From Candidatus Altimarinota bacterium (GTDB lineage: Bacteria; Patescibacteriota; Gracilibacteria; JBDHUY01): DNA of 64,000 nt. Each line of letters starts with the position of its first letter. Within the stretch, counting starts at the first letter, position 1. The stretch covers positions 132,058 through 196,057 of the forward strand of contig JBDHUY010000002.1 of the NCBI GenBank assembly GCA_039809385.1. The letters run 5' to 3'. The position numbers and the translations under genes are program-made. Positions 7,520-41,621 of this stretch are shown piece after piece. The notes under the pieces were generated by a model that made no database searches, was not told the DNA's origin, and saw only the letters and a program-made list of their open reading frames with translations.

Positions 7520-7890
7520 CTTCTGGTTCCAAGTTGTACTTGGAACCCCACTGTCCCGTACATTACCATCGTTTGCGTGCCCAAACACCGGAGTTCTATG
7601 CACAACACATGATTGTCCAGAACGTTGCCTTTCTGGTTCCAGGTTGTACCTGGAACCTCCATGTTCCGCGCATAAACTATGTTTGAGTGCCAAAACATTG
7701 AAGCCCGCTTCTGGTTCCAAGTTGCACTTGGAACCTCAATGTTACACACCGCACCATCGTTTGGGTGCCCAAACATAGGAGTTCCATGTACAACATGGAA
7801 CTAGAAAACAAAAGAGAAACCAGAAAATACCAAAACTAAAATTTTCATAACTTTTCCCATGAGAATCTGGTTCCAGCTTGCAGCTGGAAC
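7520..7890. repeat. REP palindrome cluster upstream of the RAYT gene
   Basis: GGTTCCAAG-TTGTA-CTTGGAACC (7525), GGTTCCAGG-TTGTA-CCTGGAACC (7635), GGTTCCAAG-TTGCA-CTTGGAACC (7713), inverted AGTTCCATG-TACAA-CATGGAACT (7780) and GTTCCAGC-TTGCA-GCTGGAAC (7870). Confidence 0.9.
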
Positions 7891-7933
7891 ATTTTTGTCT
7901 TACGCTCAGAACAAATTCTTCTATATTTCCACT

Positions 7934-8509
7934 ATGCCTTCACCGCGCATCAGCACATCTTTTCCAAATGACATCTACTTTCTCACCTGCACTGTCATCG
8001 AATGGATCGATATTTTTACCAAACCCGAGTATTTTCGTGTGCTAACGGATAGCCTAACATTCTGCCAGAAACAGAAGGGACTGATTGTTTATGCATACGT
8101 CTTTATGACCAACCATATCCATTTTATCGCTCAATCAAATCAAAGCCCTTTGCATGCAATCATACGAGATTTCAAAAGACATACCACAAAAGAGATCAAG
8201 AAGCTTCTGCTAACAGACAATCGCCACTATATTAATACACTCCTCTCTCATTCCTACGCCAGAAAACATGGTTCGGATTTTCAGATCTGGCAGCGCGAAA
8301 ACTTTGCCGAACACATTCAGAGCGAAGCCATGATGCTTTCCAAAGTAGAATATATTCATCAAAATCCGGTCAAGAAGAACTATGTTATACAACCGGAAAA
8401 CTGGTTCTATTCATCGGCACGATTCTATACGATGAATAACGAAGATCTGGTGAAATTGCATCGTTTGAGTGGTGAAAACATAGTAGTTCCAGGTACAACC
8501 TGGAACTAG
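7934..8509 (+). mobile_element. REP-associated tyrosine transposase (RAYT, Y1/HUH, IS200-like)
   Basis: IYFLTCTV, YVFMTNHIH (HUH), DFKRHT, IWQR and YIHQNPVK (catalytic Tyr), WFYSSA; flanked by palindromes. Confidence 0.92.
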
Positions 8510-17391: not shown

Positions 17392-17454
17392 AAGGACAGG
17401 AATGTTCATCACACTGACAAAAGCTGCGGGCGCGAATTGCAACATGACATAGAT

Positions 17455-17700
17455 AGGAAATATCAAAGCTCAAATGTCGAATATCAAACGTAGAAGATAT
17501 ACACCATACTTGCTTATCATCGGTTCTTTGAACTTTGATATTTGGCATTTTTTTGTTCGCCGTGACGAATGAACTTTGTGATTTCAGCTTTTAACCCTAT
17601 ACCAACGAATCTTACTATCATCTAGACTATTATTAGATTAGCAAAGACACGTTTTTTATTTTGATTTTTGAGATTTGAGCTTTGACATTTGAGTTTTTTT
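17455..17700. repeat. Inverted 7-bp-period tracts (TCAAA../TTTGA..)
   Basis: TATCAAAGCTCAAATGTCGAATATCAAA faces TTTGAACTTTGATATTTGGCATT and TTTGAGATTTGAGCTTTGACATTTGAG. Confidence 0.7.
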
Positions 17701-17740
17701 CAAAAATCAGTATGCTGATATTTGTTGATCGCTTTTAGAT

Positions 17741-17788
17741 GCGCCCGTAGCTTTCGCTGGATAGTCCGCCGCGGCGGATCGACCCAGG
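17741..17788 (+). pseudogene. Degenerate 5' copy of tRNA-Arg carrying a 14-bp palindrome
   Basis: GCGCCCGTAGCTTTCGCTGGATAG-TCCGCCGCGGCGGA-TCGACCCAGG versus the tRNA sequence GCGCCCGTAGCTCAGCTGGATAG-AGCACCTGGCT-TCGAACCAGG. Confidence 0.75.
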
Positions 17789-17847
17789 TAAAGACTTTAG
17801 AAAGTTACCTGAAAAATACTCATCAAAAAAATACCTCTGCGTACTAT

Positions 17848-17924
17848 GCGCCCGTAGCTCAGCTGGATAGAGCACCTGGCTTCGAACCAGGGGGTCGTGG
17901 GTTCGACTCCTGCCGGGCGCACCA
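17848..17924 (+). tRNA. tRNA-Arg(UCG)
   Basis: Cloverleaf: acceptor GCGCCCG/CGGGCGC, anticodon arm CCTGG-CTTCGAA-CCAGG, GTTCGAC T-loop, encoded CCA. Confidence 0.97.
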
Positions 17925-18090
17925 AAGAAGGTAGTAAGTATTTTTTATTTGGTATTTGGCATGAAAAACCAAAGTCGCTTTATTTAGCCTTTTCTATTCT
18001 TAAATGCAATTCCGAGCTACTAAAATACGAAATAGATCAATATTACTTCTGTAGCTTGGATTTTTAGACGTCGTCATTAAGAATCTTCCC

Positions 18091-39069: not shown

Positions 39070-39145
39070 GGCGGACGTAGCTCAGTGGTAGAGCATCTGG
39101 TTGTGGCCCAGGGGGTCGCGGGTTCGAGCCCCGTCGTTCGCCCCA
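39070..39145 (+). tRNA. tRNA-His(GUG)
   Basis: G-1 with C73, acceptor GCGGACG/CGTTCGC, anticodon loop TTGTGGC, GTTCGAG T-loop, encoded CCA. Confidence 0.97.
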
Positions 39146-39209
39146 GTATTGTTCAATCTCCAACAGTCACACACGAAAAAAGCAGATTCATAGGAGAATC
39201 TTCTGTTTT

Positions 39210-39280
39210 GTGGTAGAAATATCTCTGGTTGTGGTCCGCCGCGGCAGATCTCGGGTTCGAGCCCCATCGTTCGCTCTAGT
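39210..39280 (+). pseudogene. Degenerate 3' copy of tRNA-His carrying the same 14-bp palindrome
   Basis: GTGGTAGAAATATCTCTGGTTGTGG-TCCGCCGCGGCAGA-TCTCGGGTTCGAGCCCCATCGTTCGC versus the tRNA sequence GTGGTAGAGCATCTGGTTGTGG-CCCAGGGGG-TCGCGGGTTCGAGCCCCGTCGTTCGC. Confidence 0.85.
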
Positions 39281-39667
39281 TTTTCATTACTCTCGAATAC
39301 ATGGCAAAGACTTATTCGTTATTCGTATTTTCCGCATATAAGCTTTTGGCACCTCCAAAAACTGTCTCTTTATTCAGAGGCAGGTTCGGTAAAGCTATAT
39401 ACAATCTTTCAAATACACTCAACAGACTTTAGAGCTTGCTTGAAAAGTATATATAGATTGTTTCTTGTTCGCTGTCATGCAGGATTGCCCAGCATCCGGG
39501 GATACACGAAATATATAAATAAGACGTAGTGACGATGAACTCTATTAGATGCATGCTGCAGGTAGTTCAGTGAACGCCACTCTCTTTCAATCTGTACTTC
39601 CCAGACCCGGATTCCGGTCAAGCCGGAGTGACAGATACTAGACTTTGAAGACTTTTCAGATACCCTG

Positions 39668-41439: not shown

Positions 41440-41621
41440 AGTATTAAGTATAAAGTATTACGTATTCGGTATAAAGAAGAACAATCTCAAAGTTCAAATA
41501 CAAAATTTCAAAATAAGTTCAAAACTCGAATATCGAAATATAGTCATGAATTTATTTGGATTTTGGGCTTGGAGATTCTTTTGTCATTTGGTCCGCCGCG
41601 GCGGATTGAAATTTGATATTT
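41440..41621. repeat. Heptamer tracts, with the TCCGCCGCGGCGGA palindrome at 41592-41605
   Basis: AAGTATT-type run abutting the recA start, and TCAAA/TTTGG inverted tracts. Confidence 0.7.

Follow-up and report, generated by a model that had tools for sequence, protein, structure and literature searches.

What process could leave, next to an intact tRNA gene, a partial copy of that gene in which one arm is overwritten by a short palindrome? This question is raised by the tRNA-Arg(TCG) locus in the 64,000-nucleotide stretch of Candidatus Altimarinota bacterium DNA analyzed here (the window, numbered from its first letter). The intact gene (17848..17924, + strand), recognized by ARAGORN and, at 66.6 bits, by the Rfam tRNA model, is preceded on the same strand by a truncated copy, or shadow, that starts exactly at tRNA base 1. 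The 5' segment of the shadow (17741..17764, + strand) aligns with tRNA-Arg bases 1-23 and covers the acceptor 5' strand and the D arm, differing from the gene by one indel and two mismatches within the D loop. It is followed by an exact palindrome (17765..17778), the hairpin TCCGCCGCGGCGGA, referred to below as PAL, which on direct reading takes the place of gene bases 24-34 (AGCACCTGGCT). The next 11 bases, TCGACCCAGGT (17779..17789, + strand), match tRNA-Arg bases 35-45 (the anticodon and the 3' strand of the anticodon stem) at 9 of 11 positions, so that the shadow resumes exactly at the anticodon. The local alignment score of the shadow with tRNA-Arg was reached by none of 500 shuffles. The 58-base spacer between the shadow and the gene (17790..17847, + strand) contains no ORF in its translated frames and does not resemble the sequence that precedes the shadow; no flank duplication was seen in the local alignment, in which 198 of 500 shuffles matched the flank score. 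A promoter and terminator scan of positions 17450-18050 found nothing on the + strand.

The second such locus in the window is a mirror case. Downstream of the intact tRNA-His(GTG) gene (39071..39145, + strand; ARAGORN, and 63.8 bits with the Rfam tRNA model) and a 78-base spacer without an ORF in its translated frames (39146..39223, + strand) lies a copy of the 3' part of this gene (39224-39278 overall). It consists of tRNA-His bases 26-36, i.e., the 5' strand of the anticodon stem and the loop (39224..39234, + strand), a PAL variant with one mismatch, TCCGCCGCGGCAGA (39235..39248), and, with a few mismatches, the T arm and the acceptor 3' strand (bases 49-71 and beyond; 39249..39278, + strand). 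The palindrome and the next three bases displace the 3' strand of the anticodon stem and the variable loop. Here, too, the alignment score was reached in 0 of 500 shuffles, and no flank duplication was found (451 of 500 shuffles matched the flank score). The absence of a target duplication, which the earlier note had reported, is confirmed at both loci. Its statement that the tRNA-Arg arrangement recurs at tRNA-His is correct as to the presence of a copy and a palindrome, but not as to sameness: the tRNA-His copy is downstream, represents the 3' part, and carries a palindrome with one mismatch.

The copies could be assembly artefacts or chance similarities, given that the genome is a metagenome-type assembly of 26 contigs and that several arrays of shadows are located at contig ends. 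However, public contigs from 4 runs of 2 studies (one run possibly being the source sample) contain the tRNA-Arg shadow with 0 differences, and one of them spans 17666-18050; the alignment scores exceed those of all 500 shuffles; and an identical layout is found in a single-cell genome (L107). The likelihood of such an origin is therefore negligible, and the description in the earlier note of an upstream copy of the 5' half of tRNA-Arg with a 14-bp palindrome in place of a tRNA segment holds, both against the shuffles and in independent assemblies. Loose ends of public contigs at 17847 were considered as potential empty alleles and rejected, as they proved to be flanks of other organisms; contigs from these runs stop inside the tRNA because other organisms have the same tRNA words.

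The palindrome is itself a repeat. The window holds three occurrences of PAL with at most one mismatch, compared with 0 in 100 shuffles; the third (41592..41605) lies outside any tRNA copy and forms the core of an AT-rich intergenic repeat. The 1.87-Mb genome contains 14 exact copies and 63 sites with up to two mismatches, 39 of the 63 outside long open frames, and the backwards control of the same sequence does not occur in it. Such a count had been proposed in the earlier note as a check. As to association with tRNA genes, 6 sites are found within 150 bp of a tRNA, against 2.55 expected under a null restricted to non-coding DNA (P=0.045), so that nearness by itself is only weakly above expectation. 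Accordingly, the case rests on the presence of PAL inside tRNA-derived sequence and on the evidence from other genomes.

Each tRNA was also compared with its own surroundings, as suggested in the earlier note. An exact 10-mer of the same tRNA was found on the same strand within 400 bp in 15 of 47 tRNAs, compared with 105 of 2162 non-cognate pairs. Reading of the loci identified partial cognate copies next to the genes for tRNA-Ser(TGA), tRNA-Arg(TCG), tRNA-His, tRNA-Lys(CTT), tRNA-Gln(CTG), two tRNAs-Met, and tRNA-Asp, and further ones for tRNA-Phe, tRNA-Leu(GAG), tRNA-Leu(CAA), tRNA-Ile, tRNA-Pro(GGG), and tRNA-Pro(CGG). A search of the whole genome with nhmmer and a tRNA profile returned only 13 extra matches and missed most of the short shadows, so this catalogue rests on seed matches and reading. 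Six of the tRNA-derived copies contain PAL, which replaces bases 24-34 in the tRNA-Arg copy, bases 37-48 in the tRNA-His copy, the D loop in the tRNA-Gln(CTG) copy, the D arm in the tRNA-Phe copy, and bases 11-45 and 39-46 in the tRNA-Met copies on contigs 4 and 25, respectively.

PAL is one of two hairpin types that overwrite a tRNA arm in the partial copies of this genome. The second, TCCCGACG-N4-CGTCGGG, occupies 13 distinct sites and at all 13 replaces exactly bases 27-43 of a tRNA-Pro, tRNA-Ile, or tRNA-Leu copy. Its loop is found in either orientation, which points to an event in DNA. By eye, this hairpin is possibly derived from the anticodon arm of tRNA-Pro(CGG); a search of 300 other genomes of the class did not find it. 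Hairpin-bearing copies of tRNA-Pro and tRNA-Leu also form tandem arrays with periods of 147 and about 160 bases that reach contig ends (positions 1-700 of contig 25 with the end of contig 20, the end of contig 18 with the start of contig 17, and the end of contig 26 with the start of contig 20). These arrays probably caused the assembly breaks, so that their copy numbers in the assembly may not be the true ones.

About 30 of the 63 PAL copies belong to an AT-rich intergenic repeat unrelated to tRNAs, so PAL may have a separate way of spreading. This repeat, seen at 41592-41605 in the window and at about 30 sites genome-wide, reads ..aaagttcaa PAL caaatgacaaaagaat..caaatatcaaaa.., and in it PAL is often placed between direct repeats of 8-10 bases. 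About 7 further PAL copies resemble two-way terminators (aaaaaga PAL tcttttt). In a separate repeat family, with members at 75955 and 173864 of contig 1, 65954 of contig 7, and 15504 of contig 18, PAL is located between ..gtacccgga and tgacaaa..ttttcagata...

Some of the copies elsewhere in the genome are separated from the intact tRNA by a gene. In the cases of tRNA-Met (contig 25) and tRNA-Pro(CGG) (contig 20), this gene is an ORF of 80-88 aa, and the 3' copy beyond it bears a hairpin. The three small ORFs that were tested match the GIY-YIG family (PF01541) with E values from 1.6e-16 to 2.9e-13, and the Y, Y, G, R, H, and E columns are invariant across 9 GIY-YIG sequences. The GIY-YIG domain spans nearly the whole length of these 79-88 aa proteins, in which no separate DNA-binding domain was detected; the NCBIfam model grpIintron_endo matches only their first 30-40 residues, below its cut-off, and a PHROGs search gave only weak endonuclease matches. 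The genome has 9 such loci, 6 of them immediately after a tRNA or tmRNA gene. On the contig of the window there is no GIY-YIG match, and a search of 36 frames from 12 spacers between shadows and tRNAs found no GIY-YIG relics (best E value, 0.45; best frame of the tRNA-Arg spacer, 0.72); an ORF may never have been present in them. A string read by hand in the tRNA-Arg spacer, GKDFRKL, was considered as the C terminus of such an ORF and is not supported by the profile. In another family of the same class, a genome (G023) with 16 copies of the palindrome shows the layouts tRNA-Met, GIY-YIG gene, PAL, 3' copy and tRNA-Gln, GIY-YIG gene, copy whose anticodon arm is replaced by TCCCGCCTTGGCGGGA, as well as upstream shadows. 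In both genomes, a small GIY-YIG ORF also comes after the tmRNA gene (contig 8, 28413-29154, L043; L039 in G023).

Relatives of these ORFs are widespread. Taking one genome per species, 486 were found, and the best 80 were kept on protein similarity only; they are the top-scoring relatives of one GIY-YIG subfamily, not a random sample, and the following counts refer to these best 80 of 486. They come from about 20 phyla. Of the 80 loci, 72 have a flanking tRNA-like match on the same strand: a full-length match ends within 150 bp upstream of the ORF in 54, a match starts within 120 bp downstream in 42, and both sides are occupied in 24. A perfect TCC...GGA hairpin is present within 150 bp at 60 of the 80 loci; among the perfect hairpins near the ORFs, 69 of 206 start with TCC, with 3.0 per kb compared with 0.29 per kb farther away. 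The stems come in variants (TCCGCC, 37; TCCGGC, 10; TCCCGA, 8; TCCCGC, 5; also TCCGTC and others), and this variation by paired changes indicates selection on structure. The exact PAL 14-mer is found next to GIY-YIG ORFs at 8 of the 80 loci from other phyla, including Ignavibacteriota, Falkowbacteria, a Victivallis, and a deltaproteobacterium.

All of the first 7 loci read in detail comprise a tRNA, the ORF, and a partial cognate copy with a GC hairpin, which is of the TCC...GGA type in 6; at the remaining locus (L085), the T loop contains two hairpins that are not of this type. At L076 and L112, the shadow lies upstream, as at the tRNA-Arg locus of the window, and the ORF is still present. 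The closest counterpart comes from Acidobacteriota (L116), where a near-identical tRNA-Arg(TCG) and a GIY-YIG gene are followed by GCTGGATAGAG plus TCCGCCGCAGGCGGA plus the remaining tRNA; the tRNA is the same as in the window, the hairpin is of the same family, and the two junctions differ by no more than 2-3 bases. Similar arrangements are found at other Arg tRNAs (L118, L057, and L095). Arrays occur in the single-cell genome L107 and at L079, L110, and L087, and the hairpin is present on both sides of the ORF at L056, L080, L116, and L127. ARAGORN reports some hairpin-bearing copies as tRNA genes (L079, L050, L057, and others), with such false calls as three extra tRNAs-Met, an 85-base tRNA-Val, and a "stop" tRNA.

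With tRNAs predicted by ARAGORN under its linear option, the most common tRNA neighbor among the best 80 of 486 relatives is tRNA-Asn (28 of 80), and its cassettes are found in at least 13 phyla. On the protein tree of the same 80 sequences, the label of the tRNA type changes 21 times, compared with a minimum of 30 in 300 shuffles (68 labelled rows, the 12 without an adjacent tRNA being left out). For phyla, with 66 labelled rows, 29 label changes are counted, where no shuffle gave fewer than 33. Both tests are inflated by relatedness. The picture suggested by these sequence comparisons is that cassette lineages would pass between phyla without changing their tRNA target.

The tRNA-Arg and tRNA-His shadows are, therefore, probably ORF-less relics, or products in trans, of a tRNA-resident GIY-YIG/hairpin cassette. 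In the best reading of the data, a hairpin-disrupted tRNA copy is the signature of a family of free-standing GIY-YIG proteins of ~80 aa encoded at tRNA and tmRNA genes. In an intact cassette, the order is tRNA, GIY-YIG gene, disrupted copy or disrupted copy, GIY-YIG gene, tRNA; in the disrupted copy, a stretch of the D loop or of the anticodon arm is replaced by a conserved GC hairpin that starts with TCC(C)G and ends with C(G)GGA. Because one tRNA copy remains intact, there is no loss to the host. What is directly observed is that this layout exists, recurs, is spread over phyla, and tracks the tRNA type. The mechanism can be proposed by analogy with SegB of phages T4 and T6: the GIY-YIG nuclease would break DNA at a tRNA gene, recombinational repair using the conserved tRNA as homology would copy the cassette in, and repair could also produce local segmental duplications and arrays. 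The hairpin would serve as a cis element of the cassette that also disables the spare tRNA copy; it might be where binding or cutting takes place, might prevent recombination events that would delete the cassette, or might simply inactivate that copy. At tRNA-Arg and tRNA-His, the GIY-YIG gene may since have been deleted, or the copies may have been made in trans by other GIY-YIG genes of the genome. No pair of empty and occupied alleles of a cassette was found among the loci studied; homing into a cassette-free allele would be consistent with the many copies per genome, the arrays, the spread across phyla, and the tracking of tRNA type, all of which bear on it indirectly.

Other origins of the copies have to be weighed against this cassette. 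The copies could instead be functional, as tRNA-like RNAs, processing signals, or decoys for tRNA-targeting enzymes or integrases. Eight hairpin-disrupted copies do score as tRNAs, at 31-47.5 bits (at L050, L077, L079, and L087, where the other 18 tRNA hits score 51-72 bits), and could thus be cut by tRNA-processing enzymes; the paired changes in the hairpin stem also fit a function. However, the two copies in the window lack half of the cloverleaf and carry mismatches, give no match to the Rfam tRNA model even at E<=10 (17741-17800 and 39215-39285), and fold no better than shuffles (z of -0.64 and +0.43); no promoter-like site precedes the tRNA-Arg copy on its strand, and the hairpin is found in both orientations. 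Function is accordingly improbable, and the suggestion in the earlier note of a tRNA-like RNA is not supported by the Rfam and folding results. A comparably low probability attaches to the view that the shadows are attachment-site scars of integrases whose element has been deleted, with the palindrome landing in them later by chance. Partial tRNA genes are indeed a known by-product of element integration, according to the available part of one report (PMC9897764); about 2.5 PAL sites would be expected by chance within 150 bp of tRNAs in non-coding DNA; and tRNA-Lys(CTT) and tRNA-Asp have plain 3'-end copies with no PAL. Yet the tRNA-Arg copy is an upstream 5' part, which is unusual for integrase scars, PAL lies inside tRNA-derived sequence in six copies, and in other phyla the hairpin occurs at homologous positions of the same tRNA types next to GIY-YIG genes. 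The only two Phage_integrase (PF00589) matches of the genome are far off (contig 2, 96439-96969; contig 3, 179020-179577), neither of them in the window, and the spacers of 58 and 78 bases have no ORF; on this point the earlier note, which had discounted an att scar, was right.

The enzyme named in that note, an HUH/RAYT transposase, would have moved the palindrome into spare tRNA copies. With 63 sites at up to two mismatches, PAL resembles REPs in being GC-rich and dispersed, and a genuine RAYT gene is located about 9 kb upstream of the tRNA-Arg shadow (7859-8509, + strand; 101 bits with the NCBIfam equivalog model REP_Tyr_transpos, against a cut-off of 80). This gene, the single PF01797 match in the genome, is flanked by another palindrome, GGTTCCA-N9-TGGAAC, 5 of whose 13 genomic copies surround it (7525, 7635, 7713, 7869, and 8610); no PAL flanks the RAYT gene. 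The RAYT thus has a REP of its own, and its link to PAL is not supported. PAL-type hairpins go with GIY-YIG ORFs in other phyla, and movement by the RAYT is very unlikely, even less likely than a function of the copies or an att origin. Another palindrome associated with the RAYT gene is at 8488. The interpretation given in the earlier note is, overall, half right: a recurrent process that couples partial duplication of tRNA genes with replacement of a segment by a short GC hairpin is real, but the enzyme was named wrong, since a small GIY-YIG nuclease accompanies the hairpin-bearing copies. Its further claim that the process is undescribed may still hold, as full-text searches found no description.

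Among characterized systems, the GIY-YIG/hairpin cassette is most readily compared with SegB. In the portions available of two reports (PMC2330249 and PMC13096335), SegB recognizes a motif of the tRNA T loop and prefers the tRNA-Asn gene (PMC2330249), and it drives segmental amplification of tRNA loci, segB being enriched near tRNAs (PMC13096335). Like SegB of T4 and T6, the cassette proteins have a GIY-YIG domain and are encoded by free-standing genes among tRNA genes; their presumed target is likewise a tRNA gene, with tRNA-Asn, the preferred target of SegB, as the most common neighbor; and segments with tRNAs are amplified in tandem. Unlike SegB as presented in these texts, the cassette proteins have only 80-88 aa with no separate DNA-binding domain, are chromosomal, and are spread over about 20 bacterial phyla; their cleavage activity, unlike that of SegB, is putative. 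The extra tRNA copy with an arm overwritten by a TCC...GGA hairpin has no counterpart in the parts of the SegB papers at hand. A 2006 survey of the GIY-YIG superfamily assigned stand-alone prokaryotic domains to a Slx1-like group, and its available passages make no mention of tRNA genes as neighbors (PMC1564403).

With integrase att remnants, as treated in the available part of PMC9897764, the cassette shares a partial tRNA copy beside an intact gene that can be miscalled as a tRNA; it differs from them in having no integrase, in having both 5' and 3' copies, in the replacement of an internal tRNA segment by a hairpin, and in a cargo limited to a single 80-aa nuclease gene or nothing. REP/REPIN sequences and RAYTs, judging from the excerpts available (PMC3337134 and PMC3116915), resemble it in the dispersed short GC-rich palindrome that also flanks a small nuclease gene, whereas the cassette protein is a GIY-YIG protein and not an HUH/Y1 transposase, is specific for tRNA genes, and has hairpins distinct from the REP of the real RAYT of this genome. 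Terminal inverted repeats with a target-site duplication, typical of MITEs and insertion sequences, were not found at the shadows, where PAL replaces 11-12 bases with no duplication. At the gathering score, Rfam models matched only tRNAs in the window and in 18 cassette loci. A GIY-YIG restriction enzyme, Cfr42I, cuts CCGC/GG (PMC2241918), and CCGCGG is also the center of PAL at 17765-17778; most hairpin variants do not contain CCGCGG, so that this likeness is probably a coincidence.

A broader interpretation can be offered tentatively and has somewhat less than an even chance of being correct: an 80-aa GIY-YIG gene and a TCC...GGA hairpin would constitute a widespread minimal selfish element that uses the tRNA as a universal landing pad in about 20 phyla, duplicates the gene, overwrites one arm of the spare copy, builds arrays, and seeds REP-like hairpins, the shadows in the window being its fossils. 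The cassette system appears to be widespread and, as far as found, undescribed: searches of openly accessible full texts turned up no account of small GIY-YIG genes accompanied by tRNA copies that a hairpin disrupts. If correct, this interpretation would establish the smallest nuclease genes known as mobile elements of bacterial chromosomes; it would explain concretely where many of the puzzling partial or aberrant tRNA genes in genome annotation come from and provide an example of conserved tRNA sequence enabling an element to cross phyla. It would also connect with the amplification of tRNA loci recently found for phage SegB, and a short hairpin recognized by a minimal nuclease would be a tractable biochemical system.

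Several other elements were seen next to tRNA genes. A GC-rich element of ~90 bases, present in only two copies that are 93% alike (contig 3, 67118-67217, L007; contig 9, 7750-7857, L008), is located downstream of tRNA-Lys(CTT) and tRNA-Asp and ends in the last 17-20 bases of the respective tRNA; it lacks PAL and represents another kind of tRNA-end duplication. A similar 3'-end copy follows a tRNA-Arg in G023 (L034, about 617-636). A conserved element of ~105 bases, with copies 77-82% alike, is found directly after the CCA end of tRNA-Tyr, tRNA-Val(GAC), tRNA-Glu(CTC), and tRNA-Lys(TTT) (L042 on contig 4; L046 on contig 11; contig 3, 45154-45223). At tRNA-Tyr and tRNA-Val(GAC), it is followed by a GIY-YIG ORF, which is frameshifted at the latter.
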